Notes under the pieces: model-generated | Database searches by the model: none | Told to the model about the DNA's origin: nothing | What the model saw: the letters and a program-made list of their open reading frames with translations, nothing else | NCBI GenBank assembly: GCA_003344405.1 | Contig: NOWV01000179.1 | Span: forward strand, 124,001-160,692 | Direction of reading: 5' to 3' | DNA: 36,692 nt | Source of the DNA: Trichoplax sp. H2 | Lineage: Eukaryota | Translations under genes and position numbers: made by a program | Part shown: one piece after another, positions 1-36,692 of the stretch | Layout of the letters: each line of letters starts with the position of its first letter | Position numbering within the stretch: the stretch's first letter is position 1

Positions 1-246
1 ATCCTAATGCACGTGAACATTTGTAGCATGTGATCTTAATCTAGTACAGTAGATAAGGTTTAGATAAGCCGTAAATAGTACGATATCTAGGATTCCCCAC
101 GTTGTATGGCGCGTGCACTACAAGGTAACAAGCAGTAGTTTACGGGACAGGCGATGACTCTAAAGTTAAAATGCTAATTTTCAATCTAATTTACAAGATA
201 ATATACTAGGTCAACGAGGGGTAATCATAATTTAGCAAGCATTAAT

Positions 247-3200
247 TTAGTGTACAGCCGTATAAGATGAAACTGTGCCAATGACAACAGCTCTCTGTCC
301 TAAGCTGCCTTCAGTGGTTGGCATATCATGGTAAGCGCCATCATCCTTAATATCGCCAACAGTAGTTGAATCAACTTCTTTCTCCCATATTACTACGTCG
401 TCTAACATAGATAAAAAGACACATGCTATTATTATGATTTATACATCAACTATTATTAAGTATTGGTGCTATTGATATCAAGACTATCGCGAATCGATCG
501 TGAAGTAAATGCAGTAGTGTAATGAAAGTTAATTTTTAGAATTCTCCTTCTAATTTTAGTAACTATTGTAAGTTTAAAAGCAACTTAATTTGGTACTACG
601 GTAGATTCTACCTAGTATTTTAGTATATCGTAAACCCCGACCATTTTATTCGGTTTAAGAATTTAATGACATACGATAACTTGATTTTGTTTAAGAGTTG
701 TACAAGGTGAGATTGTAAACTTAGCTACGGTATATATTTAGATAGCACACAGCAATCCTGATTAAAAACTAGCCGGTAATTTTGATTAGAACTTACATTA
801 GAAACGATATTACTTTATGATAAAATACAGTAGAAACCCGAACGTTCTAAATAGGGTTTTAATTTAAGAGTAATGATCTTTTATGATGTTTTATAGTTAC
901 ATTTTGTATACTGCAAAAAATACTTTTTGTACAGTAGTTAAATTACGATTAACTATTATTAATTTAGTCATTTGGGAATCTAAGGTATAATTTGCTTTGT
1001 CATATGTGTTTAATTGCTAGTTTAATTTGAATTACTTTAGAATGGTAAGACAGTAGTCTGATACTACCTACTGCTCTGCGTAGTAAATAAAAGGTGACAT
1101 AGTTCAGTAGTTTAGTAGTTCAAGATAGAGAAGGTGAAGTTAAGGACTTTCTGAATTCGTAAGTAAACCGTAATTTACGCTGGTAGTTTGATTGATGAAG
1201 GCAGTAATTCTGTCCTTTTGTAATTATCAAGTACAGTTTAATATGATTTTTAGACATTTATTATAATAAACTGGTATTTTCCCCAAATTTCGTTGTATTG
1301 GAATTAAAAAGTTGGTAGTTTTACTCTAAATTTTCGTCTACTATTACTGTAGCATGTATGCCTACGGTTCTTTTCCTTATCTATCTACCTACTATTATTT
1401 TTAGATAACGAATACTAGTATTAGATTATTTTGATTAATATCATGTTATTTTTCTATAAATAGGTATAATTAGTAAACAATGGAGCAGTATTTTGTGCTT
1501 CCGTTACCTGAATTATCACTAATATCATTACTGCCATTTGCTAATCAGTTCGGTAGCTGCTAGATATGCACTAACAATAACTTTACCTTATATCGTGCAA
1601 AGTATCAACTACAGTACAGGAATAGATAGTACAAGAATATTTCAGTCTGATATGAAAGTATCAGTATCATTGTCGCTATTATTTAGTACGGTAGTCATTC
1701 AGGAAAGCTGCAATTAGCAAGGCATAGACAATAGAAGAGTAATTATCTGCGATGTCAGTAAAGATATCAAATCGCCGCCTTATTTTTAACAATCAATTAA
1801 TTAGGAAGCTATAATTAGCAAAGAATAGACAGTAAAATAGAATTTATCTAACTTTGATGTCAGTGAAGGTGTTAATATCATAACCATTATATTTAGCAAT
1901 CGGCTAGAAAGTTGTAATTAGCAAAGAATAGATATCACCGATGTCAGTAGAGATATCAGTATCATCATCGCGATCATTAAGTAATCGATTACAAAAGTTA
2001 TAGATGGAGAAGGCTGTTTATGTTTAGCAATGACGAAGGTATCAGCATTACCGTTGTTTTCATTTAGCAGTCAGTTAGAAAGCTATAATTGGCTAGAAAT
2101 ACGATACTAGAAGAGTGCGACGTATTTATCTTAAATGTTAGCGCAAGTGTTAGTACGATCATCGTATCATTTAGATATCAGTAAGAAAGCTGTAATTGTT
2201 GAGGAATAAACAGTAAAAGAGCATTTATCTACCTCCGATGTCAGTGGAAGCATCAGTAATGTATCATTATTGTTATCATATAGCAATCAGTTAGAAAGCT
2301 GCAATTGGCAATAAATAGGCAATAGAGTATTTATGCCTGATATTTACGAAGGTATCAGTATCATTATCGTTCTCATTTGTCAATTCGAAAACCTACTATT
2401 AGCACGTAATACTTCACTAAGTGCGACTTAGAGCTATAAAGTACGTATTAGCTGAGGTAGTAAGATCATCAAATCATTAGTTGCATATCACCATCACTTA
2501 TCATTTTGCTATCAATTCGACTAGCTGCATTGCCAGAAGGTAAAATAGATTATTAAAGAAATAAGTATCAGCGCTTATTATTTTGACTCGTCCAGTCATC
2601 ATCACTACTATTCTACTCATAAGAATACTATGACATAATTTCTAGCATTTATACACTGTATAATAATCCGAATTCAGTCTTTACTCCACGATCCATTCAC
2701 CCTCCCTTCTAATGATCAAGCGACATGTATAGTTTCCCAAGAAACTTCTAAATAGAGTTTCTTATTAACTATACAAAAATCAAAAAATTATAGCATTCTC
2801 TCACCAATTAAAAGATCTACATCCTGACTTGAGCTTAAGTCCGGCGCCTTGCCAATAATTAATGCTGAATTACTGTCAGCAACATTAGTAGTACTGCCAC
2901 AGCTTATAGCAGGAAAAAGGCTTGCAGTACCATCCTTATAGATTTTAAGATCTAATTCAAGAAAAGAATATCAACCGTAAGATTGTTTTAGCAGTAATTC
3001 ATAACAAGTTTTAGGCCAACCAATAAATTAGTAGTGAGTAAGAATAAAGATTCTAACAGACTACTTATAGAGGATTAGTATCTCCTATATCTAAATCATA
3101 ATACTGCAAGCTGTAAAAAATACATATTAGGAATTGCACTTTTCAAAAATTGAAATCTAATCGCTGCTGTCGTTTATCGAACGTTATGTTTACGTACCAT

Positions 3201-6200
3201 TTGTGGCGCTGTAGGTAACAGCAATATGAGTCCAAGAAGTAAATGTACCTAAGACAAAGACTGCACGACAAGAGTCCTTCAATTGGTATATAACCTCTAC
3301 TTTTTGCGAACCTGAGACTGGCTTAACATATTTAATGTCAAAGCCACGATCAGTAGCCGTTGGACTTGCATAAACATGACTGGAGAGTAAATGTTGTGGA
3401 GTGACAGTTGCATCAACTACTTTAAACCAAAATAGTGCTGAAAACCCGTTACTGCATTCGTCCGGATCGACAACACATTTACCAGGGTGTGAACCTAAAA
3501 GAAATTACACTATTATTTTTGTCGTTTTTTTACCCTTCTAGTAAATAGAAATGGAACATAGACCCAAGTTAAGTATCGTGATATCATTTTAAATTAAAAC
3601 CTCTGATTATTTAACCGAAGATTTCAGATCTATTGACGATTGGTCTGATGCATTTCTTTCTAGTCGTCATAAAGTTACCATAGATTAAGTGTACAAACCT
3701 AAGTCAGCATAAGCATAAGTAGTCTGTAATCGGAGTGCATTGAGTGTATTGCCAGCATCTAATCCAAATTTGAAATTGATGTGAGAATTATCAGGGCCTG
3801 TTATTTCTGTAGTTCCTACAATAATTTCATCAACTGCATTAATTTCATCCATGGGCCATGAGTGCGGTGTTTCATCTAAAGATCATTAGAATAATTGATA
3901 TTAATTTTATTTCAATAATGTTCGTATTTTTGTTATTTAAGTTCTAGACAAGTAAGTAGAATACTATCAAAAGATGACGATGAATTCCCGCACCATATAT
4001 TAAATATAGAATGCCATCCGCTAAATATTTATATTAATTTTCTTTTATTAATTTATTATTCTTGTTTTAAGAATTCCAGAAAGGCAAGTAGAAGGATATC
4101 AAAGGTGACAATGAATTGTTATATATAAATTAATGAATGCTTATTTTCTTTATTATATTTTGACATTGACTTTATTTCATTACTATAGTATTCTTGTCGT
4201 ACGAATTTTAAACGGGCAAATGGGTAACTATCAAAAAGTAACAATGAATTACTGTATCGTATATAAAATATTTATTGCTTATATTCTTCTTTTGTAGTAT
4301 CGTTATGATCGCGAAATAACTATTAAGCATTAACTTTAATTCGATTTAATTCGTAAGATATTGTATATCAGCAATATAAAATCTTGTTATGTTAAATTAA
4401 GTGAACTTATTATTAAGTAATCCTACCATATCATCGATAAGAGATGGTTAAAACTTTTGCACTCATTCCATCTGCTATGTATTCATGTTAACAACTACTT
4501 GACTCACCGTAACAGCCATACATCAAATTGATCTGGGTATAATCTAGAAAGCTACCACCAGTACGTTGGCCGAGACTTGCAGTTGAAACATTTGGATTTA
4601 TTACTGTAGACACACCATCGGTGCTATAGTCAATTTTGCCATAGTGCATAACGGATTGATAGTCATATTCAATTCCAAATGGGTCTGCATGTTGATTAGC
4701 ATGTATATCAAAGTGGACTAAATTGGCTAAAGAAGCAATAAATGATCAAAATGGTGAATGAAATTGCATATCATGAGCTAATATTCCTGTGTTAACTGCA
4801 TAAGCTCTATGAAACGCGAACTACTGTTCTAAAATGCATTCCTAATTTTAATTTAGTAAAGTTATGGTATCGTCAAATTCTCTTTCTTTATACTAAAAAA
4901 TATGGTCTATTCGATTAATTGTATCGCATAGAAGACGAAAATTACTATAGTACTATGGGGTCTTTATTTCAGTAACCGTGGATTAAACTTAATTATGATG
5001 CAATCTTTGAGAAATACTTTGCTCCACATTCGCGTTATGTTAGAATAAGCACACTATAACGTAAAATGGAAGTAATTATAATTTCCGTATGATTTATCAT
5101 TAATACGATATTCCAAGATTAAATTTAGTACATACTTTATGATTATTTATATAGTACTAGAAGAAAATCATCTCAGAATATAACATAAATAATCCATATT
5201 TCCATATTCTTTATTGTGCTTAAGATTTCAGGATTTTTTAATAATGCATACTTTATACTGTAGTCACATTATGCTAGACGAAAATCATCTCATAACGTAA
5301 AATGAAAATAATGCCAACTCCCGCACTGTTTATCATACTTGAAGATTCCAAGACTTAATGTATATTTTCCATTTATATTGCACTAGAAAGGACTTGTACG
5401 CAATATAGAATACAAATAATTTTAATTTCTGCACGTTATATTTACAGATCTACTATCAATAGGTATCGTTGCTGATAAATTATCGTTAAAAATAATTTAT
5501 ATGAATTCGGTAACAAGATTGCAAAGTGAGAAAATCACATTACTAATATATTCAACTTACTTGAATCTACTTTGGTAGTATCAACTGATACATAAGAATT
5601 GCGGTCTAATCGAGAATGAGTATGGTGCAATCCCAAAGCGTGGAAGAGCTCGTGAATGATAATTCCTTCGGTGTCAACACAAAAATTATCTAACGACAAC
5701 AGTTGTGCTCCACCATGTTTTCCGATAGATGATGAACATCTAAAAACAGATCAAATTAATTTAAGGAATAAGGAAAGGGAACTAATACAAGAAAGAAAAC
5801 ACCTTTGATTGAATGCTATAGTGGTGAATTTCCTTTTATCACTAGAGAGTTAATTTATTGTAAAAAATTGATAGCGGCACCGATACTAATTCGCACAGTT
5901 ATATAATTTACCCAGTAAGAGATCCGATGGATAAGTAATCGACATCGCTACTTAGTTTAGTTGCAAAAGTCAAGCAAGTTTTTGACTCGATTGTATCCAT
6001 AGCATTTCGGACTTTAGTTTGGCTTGCAGTTGCTATAATCAATCAAATATGCAATGAGAATTCACCAGTAATATATCGAGATATCAATTTATTATTTTAT
6101 ATTATGTGGGTATACACAAGTGTGTCTTGTACTATGAACGCATATAAATTATATGGTAACCAGAACTAAATATATTATAAATCTACTCGTCGTGTACGAT

Positions 6201-7584
6201 ATATTTACTTATATCCTATTCCATTTGTGGTTTATACCGTAACGATTTACAGATCTATACAATATGTTATATAATTTATGAGTCTAGCACCGTGAGGATT
6301 TTGATCGTATGCTACTAAGATATACGATCTTGCGTCATTTACATCAACTTAACGGTTCCGATAACTAATTAAGAATTCAATGTCGGTAACGTTTGAATTA
6401 TCGACCGGAATATTTTTATATCTGCTTATAGGATTAAGATTATTTGATAGCAGAAAAATGTCTTCATTATAAATTCAATTAAAGACAGACAATTTAGTAT
6501 GAAAAAATATCCAAATTCGAGGCTTAATTATGCTAAAAGAAACTGCCATCGTATATATTATCAAAACAAATATCCGATCTAGTAAAGCAGATATACCAGA
6601 TGTTCAATAAATAGATACAAGTATTCGTTGTCAACAGGATTAAATTTGTTGGTTAACAGAGCATAAGATAGTTCGTCATTAAAGGCATTAAAAGAAAATA
6701 TTCTGCTAGATATCAGTAATTCATTGAAATAGAAAGATAATCTATACTTGTACTTTGTAAGTACCTAAATGATTGGCTAAAGTAGAGATAGATTCTAGTT
6801 ATTGCACTTACGGTATCCTGTTACGAACTTATATGGTATTGTTGAGCCCCATAGATTTCCAGCAATTCCAAATGCACCTAAGCTGCGCTTCTTCCTAGTT
6901 CCCATCATTACGGTATCAGGAACCAAGATATCTCCTTCAATAACATTATTTAGCACTTGTCTCTCTATAAAGGGTTAAACATAATAAGCAACAAGTAAAT
7001 TGAGTTGGTCTACTACTGAAAAACAGTTTTTATGCTGATTAGCTAAACATAAATGTAATTAGTCTGCAGTTCCTTCTAGGCGCATCTTATTGTTTAGGTT
7101 AAGAATTGACGATATAGAAAATATTGATTCTCTCAATTACTTCTGCTTATAAGGAAATTGAGTTTCAACAATTATTATAATTATTATACTTTTAAATGTT
7201 ACCTGAATTTCCTTCATATATGTTAGCCATAGCAGGGGCTAGAGGATCTAAGATAGGTGGTTGTGGTTCATCATAAGTAGAATGCACCATGTATCTATAG
7301 GTCGGACTAGTACTGTACATAAAGTGGTTATAGGGTATGAGTTCCCCAGACTGAACTTGCTGAACTATATTAGCTTGCATAACAAGCTCCAAAGCAAATA
7401 AATAATAAACACTCATTTTACTGGATATTCCATGGGCGGACATAATATTTGCCATATTTGATGCGTCAAGGAAAAGAGGTTGAATTACACCTGGATTATT
7501 TTTTTTAAGGCTTTTTTTGGCGTAAGTTAATGCAACAAGGGCCAAAATGCCGATGGTAATCCTCCAATATGATTTTATAGGCAT
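247..7584 (-). CDS. Secreted astacin-family (M12A) zinc metalloprotease with C-terminal pentraxin/laminin-G-like domain; 9 exons, 609 aa
   Basis: Hand-spliced exons, all GT-AG and frame-consistent, 1830 nt: 7584-7203, 6964-6812, 6032-5912, 5739-5561, 4726-4508, 3875-3699, 3494-3198, 2951-2805, 401-247. Signal peptide MPIKSYWRITIGILALVALTYA; prodomain motif IEGDI; furin site RKKR; LWGSTIPY; zinc motif HELFHALGLHHTHSRLDR; Met-turn YDYQSVMHY; GQR...INLMYGC. These are followed by WPMDE...YADLG..KCVVDPDECSNGFSALFWFK...WTHIAVTY...LKIYKDG...LIIGK...IDDVVIWEK (LamG/pentraxin-like). Confidence 0.93.
1600..2410. repeat. Degenerate tandem repeat, about 100-bp unit, about 8 copies, in last intron of the astacin gene
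   Basis: Recurrent GAAAGCT(G/A)(C/T)AATT(A/G)GC...GATGTCAGT..AG.TATCAGTATCAT motifs at about 1702, 1805, 1907, 2078, 2185, 2294 and 2387. Confidence 0.75.
3930..4290. repeat. Degenerate tandem repeat, about 130-bp unit, 3 copies (intronic)
   Basis: Variants of AAGTAGAA..ATATCAAA..TGACAATGAATT recur at about 3950, 4085 and 4215. Confidence 0.6.
5030..5450. repeat. Degenerate tandem repeat, about 110-120-bp unit, 3-4 copies (intronic)
   Basis: Recurrent CTAGA.GAAAATCATCTCA / ATAACGTAAAATG / AGATTCCAAGA motifs. Confidence 0.5.
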
Positions 7585-10500
7585 TATGAAATTGATTTGT
7601 GAAATTATTCTTCGGATCAGAGTAGACTTACTGAGGATTACTTAGTAAACGCAGCAGGTTTCACTTTATAACTAATAATCTTACGAGAACCAGATCGGGG
7701 GAAGCGATATTAGACGGGAGTAATCTTATTGCCAGTCTAAGGTACGTAAGATCATTCGTTTGATTCACTTCCTATTTTATCTCTGATATGACTAACTGAA
7801 AACAATTGAAATATTATATAGTAACTTTGAGCTCCAGTAAAACTTAATTATTTATTTAGCTATAGTATTGGAATGGTTAAATTTCATGAATATATAAGTT
7901 ACAGGAAATTACAGTCACAGCATCCATGAATAATTCTAATTAACTATAGGTATTAAACAGCTCCAGACTTGAGGAAGAAAGAATAGATTCTACGTGAAAA
8001 TAGCTAAAAATATTCGCCAATTACTAATTAAAAATAAATATAGCAGGTGCATCACTTACTCTATTGCTTATACTCTATCATGGTCGTGGCAATAACAGGA
8101 TTTTCACACGTTCATTTATTTGTACTAATGCATTCTAATAGTAGCTGTCATTTGATTACGTATTTTTACGTTTATGCTAGGCCATAAATAACTTTCTATG
8201 ACTTTAAAATATAATTAATGACATAGACACCAAGATTAAATAGATGGACCTTGTTAGAAAATCATTATCGCTAGCATAAGGTTTATTATTTTCGAAATAG
8301 TAATGAAATTCGAATTCATTTTTGAGTATTTTAAATGGTTATATGATAGTTTAGATTAGGCGGCATGCAATAGCGATAGGTAGGTAATTTACGGTATATT
8401 CTACCGCAATATTTTTTGGTAGCTTGATCTCTCAATATATAGAATTAGTAAGACTTGAGCTACATATTTGCTAGGATACATTTTTATAAGTAATGAATAT
8501 TTTATGTCTTTATTGATAAATGTTTCTAAAGATTTTTATCTCGTATTTCAATTTGAGGTTTATTGGTATTATCTAGTCTTAAAATAGCTCTCTCGTTCAA
8601 TATAAGTTTCATCTATGAAAATTCTACATTTCCAAGTTGAATTGTACATATTTTAGTTCATAAATATAAAGCACAGGTTAAAAATAACGATAAATACTGG
8701 AATGAAATCTAACTGCAATAGAGCTTATAGTGAGTACTAATCAAGGATGAATAAATATACGACATCTATTTCCTTAACTAATTTAAAAATGATTTCAGAT
8801 GACTAGCATTCTTTCGTCGGTCATACCATGTATTAATATCAAAACCAAAATCAAATTTTGACGATTAATATGATATACTAAATTGAGTAACTATAAATGG
8901 AATTATACAGCTTATAATAGTCATCTTCATATTGATCGCTATTGGATGCAGATATTGACGTAGTTGGATTATTTATTAACGAAGATATGACGGATTCGAC
9001 GGTAAAGTTTAGTGCACATCCGAAATAGTTAATAAACCGTAACATAATATATATTTTTGTTAATACTACGAAGTGCTTACTATATTGAGGTCTAATATAG
9101 TGTAATTATTGATATTTCATTTTAAGGATCATTTACTTAATTAATAAATACATTTTATTAATATTTGTTCTCGATTTCGGAAAGGTATTTAATTGATTTA
9201 TTAGTATAAATAGGCGGATTTGGTGGTAGCGAGTAAACAAACTCTGATAATCAACAATAATGCATAAACGCATTATTGCCTCAATAATTAACATATCCCA
9301 GAATTGTAATAAGAATTGAGACTTCCGTAAGTGATATTGAGAAAACTAAGGAGGTCATGAATTACGACAATACTTGCTAAATTGGAAGAATTTGCCCTGT
9401 TGTCGATCTTAATAGGCATAGAAAAATCTTTGATTAAAGCTATTGTAAGCATGCATATATTGCACTAGATTTAATTAAATATACGCGTATGACTATATAT
9501 TATGTTGAAAGTCATAGAGAGTCGATCTATACTTTAGACAAAAGTTATGATATCATTTCACGCATGTCTGGGTAATGCATATTAAATCAAACTATCGATT
9601 TCCATTCATTAAAGTCATTTCCTAGATCAACATTGTACTATACGTGATAGAAGGCTAGCAGTTACTTCTATTAGGACATACGAGTACTGTAGATAGATGC
9701 AGTATTTGCGTAATTTAATACCCCTTTAGCAATCCCATAGGAATTAAGAAAAATCGCCAAGAATATCGTGTTTATCACTCTACTAAGCATTAATGGTAAG
9801 ATCTGAGGTGATCCATGGGTATGCCAATAATCTTTAATATCGCTATAGCGAAAACAATGTTATTGGAATTTTTCAATGTATTCGATATTGACATTATCAT
9901 TATATTTAATAATGAGCAATTGGGCTTAATTGCCGTTTAGACAAATGGTGTAAGCGCTTCGGATATTAACTAGTACACGGGTTTAGTTTATTTATAAGAG
10001 AGTATCCCTTTTAATTAAACAATACATGTGGCTCTTACTGTTCTGCATGTTAGTTGCCACTAGAAAATCTTTGATATTTAATGCCGATTCATCGGAATTT
10101 ATGGTCTGGATGATGTACAAATGGTTACATCGACTTACACAGTGGTGTAAGGATATACAAGGTGGGCTCGCAAATGATAACGGAATTGACATAGAGCGTT
10201 GGGCTGAATCATGACGTCTAACATTGCTGTTTTCTCCTTAACATTTGTTAAAGTAGCTATATTTTTTGCCGTTTTAAGTCTTGAAGTGGCTAAAGTTTCA
10301 TAAGAATAAATAATTACTTTAAAATTGACCCAATCATTAATTAAAATTTTATAGTTAGCTGAGTAGCAATGCTGGCGTATTAAATTATCATCTCCAAGTT
10401 TTAGGTATATTAGATTTTGAACTGTGTATAGTGTGTAATTCATAATCAGCGCTACCGCTGATATAGAATAGTTATAGTAACATGATGGCATAATTATTGA

Positions 10501-11184
10501 AACTAATACTTTTAATTATTAATTAGATAAATGTTGAATGCAACCATCTATATTTTAGTGATATTAATACAGTATAGGAAATACACGCTAATTTGTTATC
10601 TTAGATTTATTTGGATTATTAACATCAGATTCTTGGATAACCCTAATTTTTGACCATTATTTTTGATATGAATTATCCGTTATTTCGGTGATTCATTACT
10701 TATAGCAATAACTTAAATATACATAACGATATGTAAATTTCCAAAGGTCGGAATATGTTTTTACAGTGACCATAGGCATTTTTGACTGACAGAAGAGAAG
10801 AATAATAAAGATGCTAGATTACAAGTCGTGTCGATAGAAATCATAATTTCGACACTATAGAAAGATAGTTAATTTAGGTTTTCGCTCTCTTGGTTTTACA
10901 ATAGTCGAAGGCAGATATAATTAAATATGGATAGAGTTTAACTAAAGGATTACTACAGTGTCATCTTGATAGAGTCAGACGGTCAACATCTGTGTAAACT
11001 TGGTATGACTTTCTAATTTGATATATACGAGTAATATCGGACAGTCACTAAAATACGGGTGTGTTCAACTTAGATACTAAACAATAGCCAACAGGAATTC
11101 TTCTCTGCAGCCAAAAAAGTAACGTAATACTTAAATTTTTAACTAAAACGTTAAAAAAATGTCTAATCTTCTAAACATCGTTAG

Positions 11185-13580
11185 TTATTTCTTTCCATGC
11201 GACATTGCTTTTTTGATAAGATTCATTCTCTATGGTGAAAGAAATAATGACAGTAAGCTCAGGCTGCGAAACAAGCGTGATACCGCGATGCTCAGGGACA
11301 TTACCTGTTTATGAGCTTCAGTAGAAATCAATTTCTTATATGGACGTACTTCATCACATCCCATGCCTGGTATCCACATATTCCATTTATGTTCTATAAA
11401 ATGAATGAGATTTATCTTTTGCGGTTCAAGAAAAGCGTTTCATAGGATATGCAGTACTAGATAATATCGGATAAATCCAAACCTAAATGCAGCATGACAT
11501 CTTTAACTTCTAACGTATTGGATTTGCGATGCTTAGCGAGAGAGCAAGATCCGCTAACAACGCTTTCGATGAAATCATCAGCTAATTGCAATAAATGCTA
11601 AAAATATTAAGAATGATATCAATTATTATTTTGTACGTTACGTCGTTTGAGTATGATCAATGCCAAGTATATGTTGTTTAAGTGAGCATTTTCGTGTAAG
11701 ATTTTGCACAAAGGTAAAACTACCTCTTCTACATCTTCATCTAATTGCTGGAGAGGATCAACTTCAAGAACAAGTTCTTGCAATCTAGCTTTGGTTAAGA
11801 CCTAACGAAGGAGAATTGTTATGATAGGATTTGATCTTCGTTAGCACCTTGTTTCTAGATATAATTATTTGATAAAATGTTAGTTACCTCCTTTGCTTGA
11901 GTGTTGATTGGATCTTTTGCTGATATTAAATGTTAAATAAAAAGCAATATCGTTCAATAAATAAAATAGTGTTTATCAAGAGATACGTAGTTTGATTAAA
12001 GGCCATTAGAGTGTCTTAAGTTTTTACTCTTCTAAGTTAGTAGTCAATATCTAGTATGATATAATGTGCATTGCTATAATTTAGCAAAATGATAAATCAA
12101 TCATTACTTGTAGTGCCATTAGTAGCTGAAAGATTAGTATTGGATTGTACGCTTTTTAAATTAGTTGCTGATACTGATTGATTCTTGAGAAATACTGTAG
12201 GACTAGCAGGTACACTACTATCGGAAGGTGATAGTAGGGAGGATGATAGCTTTGTGCTAGCCACCATCGGCTGTTGTGATTGCTTTTTTGATTGTAAATG
12301 TTGCTGAGACTGAAGCATTGGAGATTTCGGCTGTATGGCAGGATTAGTACCAACCATGACCGTGGAAGGGGTGGTCATAGCAGCTGCAATTGTATGTGGC
12401 GAGACCGATGACGGTAATGGAGCGATTGGTTTATGCTATAATAAAATATAAGATTGATAGTTTAATTCTACATCGTCGTTTACCCATTAATAAGTCTTTA
12501 TCATACACTAGCTTGTGTTAACAATCCATATTCTGGGGAACCGACAGTAAACATCTAGTAGATCGGGCATGATACATATTAAGGTTTCATGATTTCGTTG
12601 ATGTTATCAACATGATTAATAGCTATTAGACTAGATAATCTTCATTTGATGGATCATCCATGACAGCACATTAAAGTATAGCCCTACTTTGACTACATTT
12701 GATACGTATTAATACACCTTTTCTATTACTACTTTGGACACGTATTAAGGTTTTCCTGATTTCGTTGACGTTATCAATATGATTTATAGACTAAATTAGG
12801 CAATTTTCATTGTCTGATGAACTTGCTTTGATAATACTGTAGAGTGGCCTATAGCTCTACAATTATTACCGTTAGTTCTGATTTAGTAAAGTTTGTCAAT
12901 ATATTAATATGCATCGATTGGACTAGACAATCTTCATCATTTGGCGGATCTAGTACACTATTATATTGAAGTGTATCTATACTTTTACTGCTATTCGTTC
13001 TATAATCTGATTTTACTGATGCTATCGATATGATTAATCTGTAGATTGGGACTAGGCAGTCGTCACTGTGTGCAGATTTTCTAAGATAATACATTGATTG
13101 CATTCGTTGTGATCCTGTTAAGGTTGCTAATACTATTATTAAAACGCGTAGATTTGACAAGACAATCATTATCAATCTGACGGAATTTCTAAAATAATAA
13201 TACAGTAAATTACAGCTGTGCTTTTACTGCTGTTTGTTGCATAGTCTGATTTCATTGACGTTATTAACATTGACTAGTCGATTGGACTAGACAATTTTTC
13301 ATCGTCTGGTAGATCTTGCACGATGCTCCATTGAACTATACAGTAGGTTTATTTTTACTGCTGTTCGTTTTAGCCTGATTTGGCTGACGTGAATCGGTAT
13401 TATTAATACATTGGACAACAGCTTATTCATCGTCTAATACATCGTTGATGATATTACATTGACTTCTAGTTCCATGTTTACTCCTATTAGTACTATAGTC
13501 CAAAAGGACATCAGTTAATTACTACCGCAATGCATTGGTTGATTCTTCTTCTCCCTTACCTGTGACTGCTTGTTGTCCAT
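11185..13580 (-). CDS. TAF12: Transcription initiation factor TFIID subunit 12 (histone-fold TAF); 7 coding exons, 235 aa
   Basis: Exons 13580-13560, 12435-12108, 11919-11888, 11801-11724, 11597-11483, 11393-11305, 11229-11185 (708 nt, frame-consistent). The C-terminal half [97 protein letters not shown] is the TAF12 histone fold and tail. The N-terminal exons are less certain than the core. Confidence 0.95.
12560..13480. repeat. Degenerate tandem repeat, about 125-bp unit, about 7 copies, in TAF12 intron
   Basis: Variants of GATTTC.TTGA(C/T)GTTAT.AA...ATTGGACTAGACAAT.TTCATC at about 12591, 12758, 12880, 13008, 13130, 13248 and 13377. Confidence 0.7.
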
Positions 13581-14479
13581 CGTCTTGGCAGATGATTATC
13601 CACTAAATCTACAATCCAGTAAGGATAAGAGAAATTCATTTTTATCGATTAACAACAACTCTATTCCATTCAATTCGACAAGATAATTTTGCAATAGTCT
13701 ATTGCTAAGATTGCAGCGCTTGCACTCTTGAATAAAATGGAGCCATTTTACTTTCTTCTTAGCAGCAATTTTTACTCATTCTACCATGACACTATCACCT
13801 CCAGTACACTTTATGCATAGAGTACATCAGCATGGGATACCATGTTGAATAAGGCTCACCTAGCTTGGAAGTGATCAATCTATCGTCTTCAACTGTAGCT
13901 TTGATTGGCAGAAAATGGAACTATCTCGTATTTGAAAGCTTGAAAATGGATCAACGATAGCGATGATGGCAGTTAATGACAACTAGATATCCATCATGTC
14001 TGGCCAGGTAGGCAATGGAGAGAAGAAGGGGAAAGCAATTTGATTGTATAGTGTATGGAACCGGTCCGACAACTTTAAGGCTATAGTATAGAGTAGAGAG
14101 TGAAAAGAGGAATGAAATACAATAGTATCCAAGACCCACTCTGGATGCTGGATGTCGACTCGTCCGTCCAGTCGAGGTCTTGGGTAGACGCTGGATCATA
14201 GACAGACAGACAGAAGGCTAGTGTCGCTTTGCCTAGGATATGACATTACTTTTGCGCAGGAATTTCGACTTTCAAGTCTATTGGCTTAGGAACAAGTCAA
14301 GTATTGTTCAGCGACACGATAGCCTATCGAGCAAAAGGGATGTCGGTGTTGTAGCACAGATCATTGCTAATACTAAAATAGTACATCACAAGTGCTTTAT
14401 AGAACAGTAGACTAGTGGTCATCCTGCGTACATCGACAGAGCATGCGTATGAATCGGCACTGGTGCTATGGCTACCGTT

Positions 14480-14650
14480 TCAGCCAGCCGCTCAGCCTCC
14501 AAACACTACGGTAGTAGGAGACAGGCAGCACGTTTTCAGATACTTACCTATATCCAACGGGGTTGAGAGCGAAAATTAGCTGCAAAAAATTCAAGTTGCA
14601 ACTCGAATTTAGACTCCAAGAAGAGGCAAAGCGAATAGATTAGAGAGAAA
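14480..14650. promoter_or_regulatory. Probable bidirectional promoter region shared by TAF12 (minus) and TRAPPC3 (plus)
   Basis: A strong minus-strand donor TAG|GTAAGTA at about 14547 (putative non-coding first exon of TAF12) lies about 100 bp from the TRAPPC3 ATG at 14651; GC is locally higher. The TSS itself is not visible from sequence. Confidence 0.55.
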
Positions 14651-15866
<1,216 letters not shown>

Positions 15867-16748
15867 TAGGGTGGAGCTGTTTAGCCTTATTGTTGTATTA
15901 TTATTTCTTCAATTTTTATTTAATATACCATTACTGCATCCCTGTATTCGCATGCGTGTGCAAACACTCTATACAAGATTATACTGTTTATGGGAAAATC
16001 TTTCACCTATAAGGAATGTAGACCTGTTACTGACTCATTTCTACCACCACTGTTAAATTACCTGAAAAAAATTTTTGTATTATATGATATCACAGGTTGC
16101 TTTTATGGGCATTACTACAGTAGACGGTATCTTTGTTAACGGGTTCTATTTCATAGTTCCTTTAATTTAACATTGGAGTATACAGTATAGTCTTTATGTA
16201 AGTAATTTCATGGTTTGTTGTTAATTAATACTACTTATGATAATATCATTTATTGCTATAGTTAAATCCTATTAGTAATCTATCTTACAGCAATTAGCTG
16301 CTATAGTGGCATAAAAAAGTTAGTTATACTGTACGCATAAACATTGTGTACCTTTTCTCAATAATTTGATTGAGAACCAGATGTTTTCTCATGAAACTTT
16401 ATGTTATAACTTTGTGATGCAATCAAAAGACATTTCTCATTGCGTTTTAAAAGTAGAATAGAATTTATTTTCTGATGATATTTTGCATATTATAAATACG
16501 TGTATGATATTTTAGCTCAGTAATACAGTAATATACTTTGTTTATTATTCTAACAGAGCAAAATAGCTGTTGGGCTATGATAAATGTGATAAGGATTAAT
16601 TCCATGAAACAGTTCAGAGATTATCTAACGTAAAGTAATAAAAAATTAGCTATTTACATTGAATTACGCATAAAGAACCCTTCTGTACACGATTATTTTT
16701 GATTTTAACTTATGATAAAGCAATGAAGGCATGATTGCTGCATATTGA

Positions 16749-19416
16749 TTAAGCATTAGATTTTTCATAATTTTCACTAGGCTTATGGGCTACGATAGCG
16801 TAGTTTACTTTAGTGTTGTCAAGCCACCCAGCATTATTTGTTAATGGATTATAGAAAATTCCTCCAATAAAATCCACATTTAGTCCGCCTATAATTAGAC
16901 AATAAAATACAAAGTATATTAATGTATGTGTGCTGGTAATATACCTCTATAGAGCGAGTAGTGAAGTGAAGTGTACTCTTCCTACATACACGTATACTTG
17001 TACGGCGACAAACGTAAATTAAAAGTGTTGAATAAAACAAGTAATTTAAAAGGATTTCTACAACCATGGACGACGCGACGCTAAAGTGCTATTTTCTTGA
17101 TAGTACTCTATATAGCACCTTATTCTTTTATGTTATAGCTTTTACTTTACACATGTTACAGTTATTTTTTCGTAATACTATCAAGATATGTATAAATTCT
17201 TACATGGACCGTGACATAACCATATACGTACTGTATATTTGCTGTTTATTTAAGTAAAGATTGTATAGATGAAACAAAATATTTTCTTGAGTTTTGATAA
17301 TCACAATTGATTTAGAGATAACAGATTTGATAGGCTATACCTTCCTCTAGCTTTTTCGTTAGCTCCTTAGGAGTAATAAATTTCTTCCAATCATGACTTC
17401 CAGCAGGTATGATTCTAGAAATATATTCGCCGCCAATTATCATTACCGCGTACGATAATGGTGTTCTATTTATGGTCGTAACAATGTGTTTTCCACCAGG
17501 CTGAAATGAGAATCATCGAAGTGGGTTAGTTATCTCATCTTTTCACTTTATGCATAAAATTAATTACTACAGTTATGGATTAATTAACGTAAAGTATTGA
17601 ATTATATGATTTAAGATAACAAGAATAATAATAGCTGTCTATCGTCTACTTGCTAATGACTATTTTTGCACAATTTTGGAAAGTGTATTTTTAGTACTAA
17701 ATTTAAGAGTACAGTATTATCTTTATTGTATACCTTTAGTGCCTAATTATTTGATCTAAAGTAGCAATAATAACGATTACATATCGTTTACTGGTAAATT
17801 ACTATTATTATACGAAATTTTGCTAGCTCGTATTCTTAATGCTAAATTCAGGGATATATTGGTTGGTTTCATTAAATTATTACAATACCTTTATCAACTG
17901 ACAACAGCTAGATACGAATAAATCTACGTTATCAACGTGTTCAATCACTTCTGATGCAATTACAGCATCGAATGATTGTGCGTTTTCTGTCGTTGTTAGT
18001 TGCTCGATTGTTGTACACTGATAAGAAACATTAGCAGCTACTCGATCGCATTTTGAAGCGTGTGCTTTAGCCACATTAATAATTTCAGAAGAGGCATCAA
18101 TACCTGTAACTTGGGCTCCAAGTCGTGCTAAAGGCTTGAGATATGGCAAAAATTACAATTAACATTGCAAATAAAATATTGTAATGCATTATTTTAACTA
18201 AATAGAACATTCTAGGTCAGACTATGTGCTCAGTTAGTAAGAGATTGTAGTTAATGAAGAATATCTATTATAACATCTTTTATTGCACAATATGGATTGC
18301 AGTCATGTAAGTACGAGTAGTTTTAATTTATTTATTACTATTCTGGTAAGATTAATAGTTACAGTATAATGAAATTCTACCTCGCATAGGATACCACCAC
18401 CACATCCAACATCTAAGATTTTGTATCCACTCAATGGTCGAGGTTGATCAATTTTGTGAGACTTTTCATCTCCTAGCAAAGCATCTCTTATAAGTGGAAC
18501 ACGAACCATATTCAATGCATGTAAAGGCATATTTTTATTATTCCACTGCCACCACTTGCTTGCAATATCAGAAAACTGTTTAATTTCCTCCTCATTGGCT
18601 GTTGAAGTGTTTGTGTTATGTCTTTGTGAGCTGATATTGACAGGAAATCGGAGTTTTCCTACATTTCTATCAAGATTTATAACAGCAGTTGCTGATTATC
18701 TGGGCAATTTACAAACGTGGTATTATTACTGCTAGATTAAGAATCTTCCATTGCAGTGTACTGATGCAGGATACGAGCATTAAAAGTGTACAATCCGATA
18801 GGAGGTGTTGCACACTTTGGAAGATACTCCACCGTACTACTGTATCGTGATTGTATTGTCAGGTACGTGTACACGTACTGGCATTTCTCGTTTCTTTATT
18901 TGGATGTTTAACGTAATGGGCTAAAAGATGTTTCTGCTTTCAATTATCTACTGAACACCTGTACCTCTCATCCATTTCATTTTGATAAGAGGTAGTTATG
19001 ATAACATGTTGATGATGTATTACCAGTAGGTAGAAATGCAGAAATTAGACATGAGTAACAAGACTAAGGGATTACGTCATACAAAATTTTGACACTCTTG
19101 ATCTTCGTCGATAACCAATTACAAATTCTAGCTACTTTAGTGTATTATTAAGTGCATAGTATGAATAAATTGTGCTTTACTACTCATCAACATCGCTATT
19201 GAGTTCGATATACGCGTACTTGTGTAGAACACAATCTACATATTGTGCAAATTTGTTCAGCTCGCAGATACGCATTACAGTAGATCGATGCTTCGGTTGA
19301 TTTGTATGTATGAGGGTTATATTCAATACTTTAGCTTACCTGCAAGCATATCCTAGGTGTTTTTTTTGCAAAATAGAATAAATTCTGCATCTACTTTCAG
19401 CAAAAAGAGATCCCAT
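16749..19416 (-). CDS. COQ3: Ubiquinone biosynthesis O-methyltransferase, mitochondrial (UbiG family); 5 exons, about 302 aa
   Basis: Exons 19416-19340 (putative transit peptide, less certain), 18666-18381, 18134-17889, 17500-17341, 16888-16749 (909 nt). Motifs: STANEEEIKQFSDIASKWW..LHALNMVRVPLIRD; SAM motif [71 protein letters not shown]..VNY. Confidence 0.93.
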
Positions 19417-19889
19417 AATGATGCAGTACAGTAATACGAGTTACGGCAATTTCGAGGGTTGATCGTTGATCTTTTGCATAGGATTGTTCAAATACTTTGC
19501 TGTAGCCCGTAGGATGCAGCCGATTGCACATAGACTTGCTGTACTTTAGGTACAGTGTCGACGTACCGCCTTAAGCAGTATTAAAGGCATGTACTTGTGA
19601 CATTATTTTTGCTAGCGATGTATTCTGCTGGTGACTGAATAGGGTTAGGTAAGAACCGTTCGCAAAATTTATGTCGCTCCTTGTTGCCTTGAGTATTGCT
19701 TGGATCAATCAGTGGATGGTCATGGGTGACATTATTATTGTACAGACTGCTATAAGTGTGCTACTGAGCAAGGAATGCTGAGCATAGCTCAGTTCACCCC
19801 CATCCGCTTATAATCACAGACTCATACTAAGATCAATCCTGCGCCCATTTCATATGATACAGTATGGGTATCACAGCGCGGTCTGCAAC

Positions 19890-20080
19890 ATACTGTACAG
19901 GCGTCGTGTTTAAGACGTAAAAAGATTTACAGTTAAAAGCTTTTAAGATGTACTGTACACTGTACCCTACAGTATTTGTACTGTACTGTTGATGACTGCC
20001 TAATGCCTACAGTACTTACACTACGGTTTACAGTACTGTATATTGTGAATACATAAATATATACTGTACAGTATTCCTTA
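19890..20080. repeat. Cluster of TACAG/TACTG pentamers (footprint-like low-complexity tract) in the COQ3-SDF2 divergent region
   Basis: Dense TACTGTACAG, TACAGTA, GTACTGTACTG and TACAGTACTGTA runs read directly from the sequence. Confidence 0.7.
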
Positions 20081-29800: not shown

Positions 29801-32800
29801 CACAAAATTAGAATATTTCACAATCTATTCTTCTTTTGTAAAGGCTTTTTTTTATACGTCCTCAATTAAACCGTATAGTACTTAGATACAGAAGATATAG
29901 GTTGTGATAGTTGAAAATTTTGGGTGAAATCTTGAAAGGGATTATAACTTGAGAACTTTAGCTCTCTTATGTGTCTCTAGTAATTATTAATTATGGTTAT
30001 ACAGTACTGTATAATACGCAGATTAATAGATAATACAAAATCCATTGTACAATACAGTAGTTGATATTATTGCGTAAAATGTTGAAAAAGGATTATAACT
30101 TTTAAGATTTTGGTATTTTTTCTTCTTGTACGCCTCAAATATGTAATTTTACAATCTACAAATTACACAGAATCTATGTTATGATAGTTGAGAACTTGAG
30201 GTTTCTGGGTAAATTATTGAAAGTAATGTAATTTGTAGATTTTAGTATTTCATCTTTTTTTTGGATCTAAATGCTTCTATAACGTGTGGATGACATGAGA
30301 TTTTGTGGTATAACCGTTGATATTTCTTGGTAAAAATGTGGAAAGAAATTATAACTTGTAGATTTTAGCGTTCAATCCTCTTAAGCTATCCAAAATAATT
30401 TTTGAATGCTTCAATACAGTATATGAGATTGATAACTTGACACTTTCTGGGTAAATTTTTGAAAAGGATTTACGTATTTCCTGAAAGTTTACTGTCCTAT
30501 AATTGTCATTGTGAATTACATTTTAATATAAGAAATGCAATGATAATAATTTAATTAAGAATAAAGATGTCAATTTATCAATTGTTGTGGTGTATTTTAA
30601 AAGGAAAACCTTAACGAATGCCGGTTATTACAATATAAGAGTGCCATTCTTGTATAAAAAAGTGACGGAGTGTCAACTTTTGAGCAGCGTTGACGTTATA
30701 CAAATTAAGAAAGTGCAGATATATACTCAGTATTATGTTACATATCGAGAACATAACTGAAGATTGAATAAGAAAATAAACTATCACAAGCGATATCAAT
30801 AACAATTTTTGAGTTCATTACTATTATTTTAATGACCTTCTCGGTTGTATATCAGTTATCAGTCAATTTAAAGGATGAGAATTTTTGATCGGACAAGATT
30901 TTGATTGTTGTAATTGATACTGAAAATTGCTTTCGCATCATTTGATTGTAGTGTTATCAAACCAATTAAACGAGTAGGTAAATAATGTTTCCAGTAAGAT
31001 GTACGGTAAAATAAGAGGCCAATGCAATAAATATATTTATAGCCGTCGCGAAATAACATGTAGGCTACGATGTTCAATTTTATATTCACTAAGGTAATGT
31101 ACGTGCATGTATATCCAAATCATTTTTCGATCGAAAGTTAGCACTAAATACGTGTGCCGTGGATAAGTTGATTTATATTGTCACTGTCAAATACAGTTTC
31201 ATCTTTACACTTCTCCAGCACTATAGAATTCAGTTATAATATGATATTACGTTATTAGTATCTGAATAACAGTCAATTAGTTACGCTCTAATTGCCTGAA
31301 GGTGTATTGGGTAAACCATATGTAAGAAAATTGGTCATGGGCGTAGTTTTGCACATCAATACATTTTCCCAGACTTGCCAGAATATCGTACAGTATCTAA
31401 GCTTGTAAAGTTTGGATAAAGTCTTGAACTACTTTATGATTGTAATGGAATAGTACCTTTGTATATACCTATGTAGCATCTTATACAAGTATCGGTGGAT
31501 AATTTAAAAGGGTAGTATCTATCAAATCTTTATTGACAATTTGCATTCAAGAGTAGACATGGTAGAAACAAGAGAGACACATACACTCGAGGTCGTCCAT
31601 TAATACAGGCACTGTACTACCGCTATTGGATTATTTTAAAAAGAATAAAAGTAATTGTAATAACATGCACGATGACTACTCTTTTAAACGGTATAAAAAA
31701 AAAGTTGACATGCTGTCAACGCCAATGAGACATGTGGAATAATTCTCAGCAGGGTTTAAATTGTACGTTAAGCCACTAGCTTAGGGTAAACATTCGACTA
31801 TCCAACAAGGGTATTTGCTAACATACGAGTAAGTTGTTACATGTCGTATCCAGGCAAAATATGAACAAAACAGATTCTCTAGAAAGTTTAAACTAATACG
31901 CTATGTCACTAACTCAGGATAAGCATTGCTCAATTATGTAATAAAAGCATTCTGGTGACATTAGTTCAGTTCTATACATCTAGTAGAAATATAAGCAAAT
32001 GAATGTTTTGTGGAAGTAGATTCGCAAATCAAGCGATATCCCTATACATTCATAATAATTATATATACATTGTATCGAATAAAAACTGGAGTAAAGTATG
32101 ATAAGAGTCTAGGTCGTTTAATAAGTTTCGCAATAATAACAAACTCTATAATACTGTAGTAGAATTTGCTATATTGCAAATAGATATTGAGTATTCCATA
32201 GTACGGAATTCTTACTGAGAAGGCAATATCTGAGGGTAATGATGTATTTACAAGTATACCGGGTATGTTAAGAGTCTAACTCGTTTGACAAGCTGGACAA
32301 GAATAACAAACTCTTTTGTGGTAGGAATTAGCCATACTGTATGTAGACGTTTATTGTTCCACACTCAAGAAGGCACCATCTGAGAAGGCAATGGTGTATT
32401 TACTACAAGTATACCGGGTATGATAGAGTCCAACTCGTTTGATAAGCTTGACAAGAATAACAAACTCTTTTGTGGTAGGAATTAGCCATACTGTATGTAG
32501 ACGTTTATTGTTCCACACTTAAGAAGGCAGCATCTGAAAGCAATACTGTATTTAAAATTATTTACAACGAGTTTTAGAAGCTACAGTATTTTAGTCCATT
32601 TCAATCTGGTAATGGCTACAAAGCCAGCACTGAGCAATGATATTGTGGAATGATGATGATTGCTCATTTGAAATATTTACAAAGTGACTGTGAATTGGAT
32701 AAATTTAGAAGAAATTTATATAATAATAATAATAATAATACTGTGCATTACTGCTGAATTTGTATTGATGGCGTAGTCTTGGTGTATATGAAAATCATGA

Positions 32801-34249: not shown

Positions 34250-35215
34250 GTGATTCAGACTTTGACAACGTACTGTACTGTACTGTAGGCGAGCTATACA
34301 GTACTGTAAATTCCAGGTTCTCAGACTTCGACAACGTACAGTATGATCAGGGCTAATGGGTCACCTGGTCAGAGACTACAGTATTAGATTGGAAAGAATC
34401 CAGTACTGTACACTGTACAATACAGTGATTTGTATTGTACTCCAGGGCGTACAGTACTGTACAGTCCAACTTTGAATGCTGTACTGTACAGTACCGTACT
34501 GTAGGCGAGCTATACTGTACTGTAAATTCCAGGTTCTCAGACTTTGAAAACGTACAGTATGATCAGGGCTAATGGTCGCCTAGTCAGGGACTATTGGATT
34601 GGAAAGAATCCAGTACTGTACACTGTACAGTACAGTGATTTGTATTGTACTCCAGGGCGTACTGTACTGTACTGTAGGCGAGCTATAAATTCCAGGTTCT
34701 CAGACTTCGACAACGTACAGTATGATCAGGGCTAATGGGTCACCTGGTCAGGGACTATTAGATTGGAAAGAATCCAGTACTGTACACTGTACAATACAGT
34801 ACAGTGATTTGTATTGTACTCCAGGGCGTACAGTACGTACAGTACAGTACTGTACGGTACTGTAGGCGAGCTATACTGTACTGTAAATTCCAGGTTCTCA
34901 GACTTCGACAACGTACAGTATGATCAGGGCTAATGGGTCACCTGGTCAGGGACTATTAGATTGGAAAGAATCCAGTACTGTACACTGTACAATACAGTAC
35001 AGTGATTTGTATTGTACTCCAGGGCGTACAGTACGTACAGTACAGTACAGTACTGTACGGTACTGTAGGCGAGCTATACTGTACTGTAAATTCCAGGTTC
35101 TCAGACTTTGAAAACGTACAGTACTGTACACTATGATCAGGGCTAATGGTCGCCTAGTCAGGGACTATTAGATTGGAAAGAATCCTGTACTGTACACGTA
35201 CAGTACAGTACTGGA
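34250..35215. repeat. Tandem array of about 160-215-bp units (about 5.5 copies) with variable TACAG/TACTG pentamer content, upstream of CAMSAP
   Basis: Anchor TTCCAGGTTCTCAGACTT at 34311, 34527, 34690, 34888 and 35091 (spacings 216, 163, 198, 203). Conserved blocks TATGATCAGGGCTAATGG, GATTGGAAAGAATCC, GTGATTTGTATTGTACTCCAGGGCG and TAGGCGAGCTATA. Confidence 0.95.
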
Positions 35216-35559
35216 TTTCGCACTGGACAGTATTCCACAGGGGCATGTAAAACGGGAAATGTCTTACCAAATGCCAATCGCTTTTTTCTCCCTTTAATAA
35301 CAAGTCATGCAGGTTGATGGTGGTTGCAGAAAGCATCAAGCATGTATCAACGCAAACTACGCCACCCACCTACTATCGTTAGTCTTCATGGACAGTTGTG
35401 TGCGCATATGAATTCAATCATTACGGTTAGAAAGAAGTTTAACCATTTTACAGGTCATTTCCTGTCTCTAATCGATAGCATTATGTTCGCATTCGATTGA
35501 TCAAAAATTGCCTAATTGAAAGTACTGCGCGATGACTGTCGTTAAGAGCAGGGACTATC

Positions 35560-36692
35560 ATGCTTGGAGTTGACCTGCACCTGCAAGAGACCAACTCTAT
35601 CTGCAATTGTAGACCATAGGCTGTCAACTGTACAGTCTACACTATACCAAATACTTGGCCATTTTGCCAATGTATGTCATTTCAATGGGCACTTTAAATA
35701 TCAAATGACTTTCCACACACCCTGTTCATATTGAAAAATAGTTCTACTGTAGTTTGATGCAAGATGAATACGCCAAGAAGAGAGTCTTGGGAGTTGACCT
35801 ACACGTGCAAGAGACTAACTCTATCTGCAATTTTAGACCATAGGCTGTACAGTCTACATTATAATAGCCAAGCCATTTTGAAAAATAATTCGACTGTACA
35901 GTACTTTGATGCAAGATGAATACGCCAAAAAGAGAGTCTTGGAGTTGACCTACACGTGCAAGAGACTAACTCTATCTGCAATTTTAGACCATAGGCTGTA
36001 CAGTCTACACTATAATAGCCAAGCCATTTTGAAAAATAATTCGACTGTACAGTACTTTGATGCAAGATCAATACGCCAAGAAGAGCGTCTTGGAGTTGAC
36101 CTACACGTGTATTATTAAAAGAGACTAACTCTATCTGCAATTTTAGACCATAGGCTGTACAGTCTACACTATAATAGCCAAGCCATTTTGAAAAATAATT
36201 CGACTGTACAGTACTTTGATGCAAGATGAATACGCCAAAAAGAGAGTCTTGGAGTTGACCTACACGTGCAAGAGACTAACTCTATCTGCAATTTTAGACC
36301 ATAGGCTGTACAGTCTACACTATAATAGCCAAGCCATTTTGAAAAATAATTCGACTGTACAGTACTTTGATGCAAGATCAATACGCCAAGAAGAGCGTCT
36401 TGGAGTTGACCTACACGTGTAAGAGACTAACTCTATCTGCAATTTTAGACCATAGGCTGTACAGTCTACACTATAATAGCCAAGCCATTTTGAAAAATAA
36501 TTCGACTGTACAGTACTTTGATGCAAGATCAATACGCCAAAAAGAGAGTCTTGGAGTTGACCTACACGTACAAGAGACTAACTCTATCTGCAATTTTAGA
36601 CCATAGACTGGACAGCCTACACTATAATAGCCAAGCCATTTTGAAAAATATTCCGACTGTACTTTGATGCAAGATCAATACGCCAAAAAGAG
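35560..36692. repeat. 151-bp tandem (satellite-like) array, at least 6 copies plus a diverged lead copy, running off the window end
   Basis: Anchor GGAGTTGACCTACACG at 35790, 35941, 36092, 36251, 36402 and 36553 (period 151; one 159 due to an 8-bp insertion near 36112-36119); diverged copy at about 35565-35665. Confidence 0.97.

Follow-up and report, generated by a model that had tools for sequence, protein, structure and literature searches.

A tandem array in Trichoplax sp. H2, in which CAGTA and CTGTA units (together CWGTA) form mixed tracts, appears to record a genome-wide mutational process that places CAGTA or CTGTA behind the dinucleotide TA and that is most likely of the Tc1/mariner type. 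The array lies in a window of 36,692 nt (G000:C218:124001-160692), the whole stretch of DNA analysed here, within a 94.9-Mb genome. At this locus and in dispersed repeat families, we observed exact, polarised, TA-anchored insertions of these units in both orientations, often untemplated, together with a genome-wide excess of the resulting words. We consider it moderately likely that Tc1/mariner-type excision scars seed the CWGTA units and that the tracts are then lengthened and rearranged by local duplication and template switching; from the pattern we infer a transposase, a cycle of insertion and excision, and re-targeting of scars.

The array consists of one truncated and five longer copies (starts at 34256, 34322, 34538, 34701, 34899, and 35102; Table 1), and the locus has a second copy on contig C566 (G000:C566), close in the unique flanks, that supplies five further units. 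All coordinates and additions reported by the first-pass annotation hold (34377-34383, 34684-34687, 34291, 34507, 34868, 35071, and 35124-35133). Site A (gagcTATA) is filled in four of five window copies and empty in the fifth. Because it is also empty in all three intact C566 copies, the empty TATA is probably the older state, and the four filled copies probably reflect one or two gains followed by array duplication rather than four events. Of the 10 copies from both loci, 7 have an empty site D (gacTAtt); the fillings there are one unit in the window, three mixed units in one C566 copy, and a 9-nt noncanonical insert, CTGGAATAA, in another, which contains an inverted copy of nearby TTCCAG. 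At site C (ccTAgt), which the first-pass annotation had not listed, one C566 copy gained three CTGTA units and four copies are empty. The 3-nt core at sites A, B, and D is CAG or CTG, with both orientations found at one site. A TA site in the neighbouring 151-bp array carries CAGTA in five of six matched window copies and one of three matched C566 copies. Two other small contigs behave in the same way as the array locus.

The suggestion that the array copies differ mainly by 5-nt additions needs qualification. The additions are real, but the copies also differ by a 20-bp segment (34462-34481) and by the 9-nt insert. The 20-bp segment was probably lost from copies without it, so that not all copy differences are gains; considered as a mini-element for its CAG...CTG ends, it was discarded, its C566 homologues being without those ends. 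That the 5-nt additions are insertions rather than deletions was borne out, with sites empty in most copies, at both loci, and, for the dispersed families, in almost every sister copy.

Independent evidence came from 127 copies of five dispersed repeat families compared pairwise, in which insertions of at least 4 nt absent from most covering copies were counted (60% cut-off in one run and 75% in another). Against a background of roughly 2,000 substitutions, these copies held 32 distinct insertions, of which nine were exactly TA>TA(CWGTA)n; six of the nine were not duplications, which agrees with the earlier expectation of insertions at TA sites with no adjacent identical pentamer. Family F2 (28 copies) contributed 6 of 15, four of them not duplications, after five of its 20 rows, representing one nonhomologous stretch of L115, were removed; a seventh F2 case, L098, was split wrongly in the counted run, appeared as a 5-nt gain in other comparisons, and was left out of the count. 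Family F5 (39 copies) contributed 3 of 9, two of them not duplications, from 16 rows of which eight were one shared duplication site. None of four insertions in F1 and none of four in F4 were exact, and the young family F3 had no insertions (20 copies each). By chance, a random 5-nt insert would be of this form in 359 of 400,000 trials (0.09%) and a 5-nt tandem duplication in 271 of 8,720. The exact insertions were constant whatever the flanks.

We also measured the distance to the nearest CWGTA or TACWG 5-mer for 17 hand-picked nonduplication events, two of them within stretches of only 356 bp. Six lay 70 to 305 bp from any such 5-mer (40% of background TA sites lie at least 70 bp away), and 11 lay within 30 bp (background, 36%). 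Local templates help new CWGTA units to arise but are not required.

The word composition of the genome showed the same bias. In 41 stretches of 10 kb (410 kb) at fixed coordinates, mostly on larger contigs, TACWGTA occurred 968 times against 173 expected and ranked first of 32 TA-NNN-TA classes, as the first-pass annotation had anticipated for TACAGTA and TACTGTA; extrapolated to the genome, this amounts to about 1.8 x 10^5 excess sites. For the core CAG, TA..TA ranked top among 256 flank pairs. Genome-wide, ATATACAGTATAT occurred 626 times against 101 in a reversed control, and its CCG counterpart 67 times against 21. TACWGTA occurred 118 times in the window (shuffle mean, 9.73; shuffle maximum, 17); outside both arrays it was still the top 7-mer (64 against 13.5 under a Markov-2 model). 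ACAGT accounted for 95 of 137 perfect pentamer runs in the 410-kb sample.

Decay and local copying account better for the TACCGTA/TACGGTA and TACACTA variants from which further families with CCG or CAC ends had been proposed. TACSGTA was the second class in the sample (122 against 56). Because other A:T>G:C neighbours of TACWGTA were also in excess (141 against 102, 120 against 94, and 91 against 61) and sister copies at L121 carry TACAGTA and TACGGTA at one site, decay suffices for TACSGTA; TA>TACGGTA at L121 was accordingly rejected as an insertion and is a point change. TACACTA was enriched only 1.25- to 1.4-fold, and the CTGTA-CACTA addition in the last array copy was probably copied locally, because 35119-35132 is identical to 34973-34986 over 14 nt. 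Another variant, TACASTGTA, was 9.6-fold enriched, with 64 of 74 occurrences within 40 bp of a tract. We had considered TACAGTGTA/TACACTGTA as a 5-nt scar showing CAGTG ends; with 64 of 74 in or near tracts they are not independent evidence, and 17 against 5 to 6 were still left after masking.

Most CWGTA tracts (606 of 742) are a single unit. In longer tracts, neighbouring units kept their orientation in 141 of 226 steps and switched in 85 (P = 0.0002 against 50:50), with 46 A>T and 39 T>A steps. Tract growth is thus neither pure slippage nor pure independent scarring, and the idea that the tracts were built purely by serial scarring at the same TA sites has to be given up in that form. If the orientation-keeping remainder were slippage, about three quarters of the steps would be orientation-random.

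The mechanism we favour would begin with a Tc1/mariner-type element with CAG ends inserting at TA and duplicating it. Later excision would leave two 3-nt CAG overhangs, and end-joining across the central A:A mismatch would yield TA-CAG-TA or TA-CTG-TA. Such scars would lengthen into tracts through further hits and local direct and inverted duplication, and the tracts may promote deletions too. The inserted sequence matches the canonical Sleeping Beauty (SB) footprint letter for letter, as the first-pass annotation had noted, in the accessible text of PMC6943129; here and below, statements about cited papers refer to the portions accessible to us. Like the TA-C(A/T)G-TA footprint of SB and Frog Prince (PMC6943129, PMC3878927, 10.1101/659086), the insertions have identical letters, a 5-nt gain at TA, and both orientations. 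Unlike it, they form genome-scale tracts, come with no donor or filled site found and with little ATAT flank preference, and lack enrichment of the short companion scars. They behave like an SB footprint and are candidate members of that class.

A CAG-ended, TA-targeting element, which the first-pass annotation had called for, was not found in a donor search covering about 0.84 Mb, under 1% of the genome. Profile matches to transposase families were few (PF13358, two; PF03184, three; PF01498, four); PF01359 and PF16087 gave none, but their positive controls were silent too. A Tc1 protein used as the query gave six matches at five places. At L022:4573-5739 (G000:C323), on the minus strand, there is a Tc1-type DD34E transposase gene with an intron, for which no inverted repeats were found and no close relative of the protein beyond a best match of 53%, only longer proteins having been compared. 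The existence of this remnant speaks for a Tc1-type source of the scars. Three distant Tc1-like matches were also seen (G000:C808:57905-58561, C264:345496-346383, and C248:42071-42847), with open frames of 243 to 369 amino acids (aa). L086, L087, L088, and L023 hold intronless pogo/Tigger- and Tc1/IS630-derived open frames (361 to 549 aa) without inverted repeats, which are probably domesticated; L087 has a second long open frame (at least 626 aa) that is hAT-like by eye. No recurring end was seen by eye in the flanks of 25 assembly gaps. In four public read runs compared with window positions 1-20000, the 12 of 42 indels listed included no clean CWGTA gain in unique DNA. A metagenome scan for the array gave no matches and hence no outgroup species.

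Several of these results weigh against a transposon origin. No TA-CAG...CTG-TA inverted-repeat pair was present at any of eight transposase-like loci read (a set apart from C808, C264, and C248:42071), and no convincing CAG-ended pair in any of 161 loci scanned, where nine weak pairs were by eye tract-like or due to chance. The best Tc1 gene, that on C323, is single-copy and has one in-frame TGA. No filled site, with an element within TA, was found in the array copies of the window or C566 or among the 127 family copies; the latter are a small sample, the best-scoring 20 to 39 per family of up to 687 candidates, and their choice disfavours copies with long inserts. The literature points the same way, with DNA transposons reported as 0.09% of the Trichoplax genome and none active (PMC2871265). 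The rate of exact insertions is uneven by family (6/15, 3/9, 0/4, 0/4, and 0/0), the flank preference of isolated scars is small, orientation is kept in tracts more often than 50:50, and most nonduplication events lie close to a template. Finally, shorter SB-type scars were not enriched after masking (TACATA, 0.81; TACGTA, 1.04; TACTA, 0.99). Such scars make up over half of SB footprints in HeLa and HCT116 cells (10.1101/659086), while canonical scars dominate in several other hosts and scar type is host-dependent (PMC6943129); their lack of enrichment here counts against a strict SB parallel. Numerous scars beside scarce filled sites could be the work of a cut-and-paste element with very few standing copies, and such an element, if short, might be missing from this short-contig assembly, in which the smallest contigs seen are about 2 kb.

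Template switching without any transposon would account for part of these observations. In such a process, quasi-palindromic TAC-W-GTA units in the vicinity would serve, whichever way they point, as templates for patching breaks or stalls at TA, and the motif would copy itself. CAGTACTG and CTGTACAG are perfect palindromes, the array unit folds with a z score of -4.6, the 14-nt identity behind CTGTA-CACTA and the inverted TTCCAG in the 9-nt insert look locally copied, and the proximity of 11 of 17 events to a template, the clustering of TACASTGTA at tracts, and the failure to find a donor at the loci searched all fit. We nevertheless hold it unlikely as the sole explanation: it leaves the 6 of 17 distant events, inserts that end exactly at TA with no template flank, and the tract-independent CGAG/CGCG insert class described below. 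A host enzyme rather than a mobile element might instead write a fixed patch at TA breaks, whether a domesticated transposase, a polymerase that carries its own template, or short-fragment capture. The constancy of the insert, several Tc1/pogo-derived open frames that occur once and lack inverted repeats, and the extrapolated excess of sites against almost no elements agree with such a writer. It becomes quite improbable, in our estimation, when one considers that under two-ended telomerase-like addition every CAGTA would precede CTGTA, which the nearly equal A>T and T>A steps contradict, that under the established mechanism (PMC6943129) a transposase lacking donor ends would have nothing to supply CAG, and that two unrelated insert classes would require two such enzymes.

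We give very little credence to an ordinary slippage microsatellite that selection would keep at promoters for its ability to bind a protein, as suggested in 2010. This account draws on the published position of ACAGT repeats, 54% of which are no more than 1 kb upstream of a gene (PMC2871265), the emergence of ACAGT from a chromatin-insulation motif search (10.1101/2024.11.14.623548), and the majority of steps that keep orientation. Set against these are the steps that switch, the predominance of single-unit tracts, and units arising de novo at isolated TA sites in dispersed repeats; selection may also retain sites but leaves their origin unexplained. The nonduplication insertions largely refute a slippage origin, and direct copying holds for part of tract growth only.

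A second class of TA-bounded inserts, CGAG/CTCG/CGCG, is also enriched. TACGAGTA/TACTCGTA occurred 50 times against 19 and TACGCGTA 20 times against 4, both preferring ATA flanks and lying apart from tracts, with 6 of 50 and 3 of 20, respectively, no more than 40 bp from one (background, 13%). Whole-genome counts between ATATA and TATAT, with the reversed control in parentheses, were 150 (4) for CGAG, 115 (4) for CGCG, 58 (13) for CGTG, 36 (3) for CGGG, 11 (5) for CTAG, and 10 (7) for GCAG. In the F4 copy at L202 (C113:216110-216740), we found a polarised 6-nt gain, TA>TA-CGAG-TA, relative to 19 of 19 sister copies; a neighbouring base differs too, leaving room for partial duplication. That this is the only polarised event of the class is a further point against a transposon reading. 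The class may represent a degenerate binding motif. Because it cannot be copied from CWGTA tracts, it favours end-derived scars, and it could be the apparently older scar of another, Minos-type family. Two G:A mismatches would arise when CGAG overhangs anneal, and loss of the A would give CGCG and never CTAG, matching the counts. The letters of the Minos footprint we take to be CGAG/CTCG and its target ATATATAT, which a literature search did not confirm. Minos leaves a 6-bp footprint (PMC10992017, PMC3386967), and the 6-nt gain in a TATA context at L202 and the strong genome-wide ATAT excess resemble it. CGCG being here as common as either orientation, with CTAG near background, does not, and no Minos-like element was found. 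More tentatively, and with considerable doubt, we propose that Tc1/mariner elements from two or more families wrote over a nearly transposon-free animal genome in hit-and-run fashion, with hardly any copies staying behind, that about 10^5 re-targeted scars became its dominant microsatellite and a promoter and insulation motif, and that the CGAG/CTCG/CGCG-without-CTAG pattern arose because tandem G:A mismatches left by excision were repaired with a bias.

Table 1. Positions of the array, its filled and empty sites, and neighbouring repeats in the window
Feature	Position	Strand	Remarks
Tandem array, mixed CAGTA/CTGTA tracts	34256..35213	+	Units about 160-216 bp
Site A filled, TATA + CAGTA + CTGTA	34295..34308	+	Follows gagc at 34291
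Site A filled with CTGTA-CTGTA	34511-34524, 34872-34885, 35075-35088	+	
Site A empty (TATA)	34684..34687	+	Empty also in 3/3 intact C566 copies
Site D (gacTAtt) filled, one unit TA-CAG-TA	34377..34383	+	The other four full copies in the window read gacTAtt
Optional 20-bp segment between two tracts	34462..34481	+	In 1 window copy and 3/5 C566 copies
CTGTA-CACTA addition, last copy	35124..35133	+	35119-35132 identical to 34973-34986
Neighbouring 151-bp array	35745..36692	+	Reaches contig end
3' half of dispersed 320-bp TG..CA repeat (F2)	1..156	+	Copies elsewhere carry polarised TA>TA(CWGTA)n insertions

The window also contains intron-split animal genes (astacin, CAMSAP, a methyltransferase, and a MIR domain) and old, diverged tandem arrays with a period of 100 to 250 bp at 1700-2340, 12585-13460, and 32096-32537. 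The C566 copy of the locus holds about 560 bp absent from the window at 35345, without TA-CAG at its ends. The 7-nt units TA-CAGTC-TA/TA-GACTG-TA make short tandem runs of their own (18 against 6 expected), located at L126:430-760, L155:1547-1583, and window 35640-36600. The dispersed 320-bp TG..CA repeat (window 1-156, L092-L121) has 4- to 5-bp target duplications. A first look turned up 687 and 241 candidates for two more TG..CA families of about 550 bp, and there were 471 candidates for a Helitron-like family, so dispersed repeats are more numerous than the 2010 survey suggests.

The unit itself is known. In Trichoplax adhaerens, ACAGT was reported to make up 78% of pentamer repeats, and its origin was left open (Wang et al. 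2010, PMC2871265); the unit is the same here, at 95 of 137 perfect pentamer runs. Unlike our analysis, that work regarded (ACAGT)n as a perfect microsatellite that might act as a binding site, and its accessible text does not mention TA anchoring, mixed orientation, single-unit insertion, or a transposon origin. The TACATGTA motif of Phytophthora promoters (PMC3520976) is likewise an abundant TA-flanked promoter motif equal to a Tc1 footprint, but its abundance and conservation led the authors to reject a footprint origin, and the portions seen describe no insertion test; TACATGTA is not enriched in this genome (1.08). A Mutator terminal inverted repeat (TIR) motif at placozoan promoters (PMC12221973) is similarly transposon-derived, but it belongs to another superfamily and represents element remnants rather than excision scars, and the main text of that paper contains no instance of "Tc1". 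Both the Mutator motif and ACAGT have been tied to placozoan chromatin (PMC12221973; 10.1101/2024.11.14.623548). We found no literature linking ACAGT to excision footprints, in a search that was thin on subscription journals and did not take in preprint supplements, the transposable-element data of PMC12221973, or five Repbase placozoan elements. Excision footprints are textbook knowledge and the motif is published; what appears to be new is linking the two as the origin of the repeat, a mechanism that is probable and unproven.

If this link is correct, it would account for a motif left open since 2010, and it makes the sharp prediction that a CAG-ended element, either active or very recent, is present although the genome is reported to contain none. 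Excision scars alone could then grow into the chief simple repeat of an animal genome and supply its promoters with raw material, and past transposon activity would be readable in genomes whose elements are gone.
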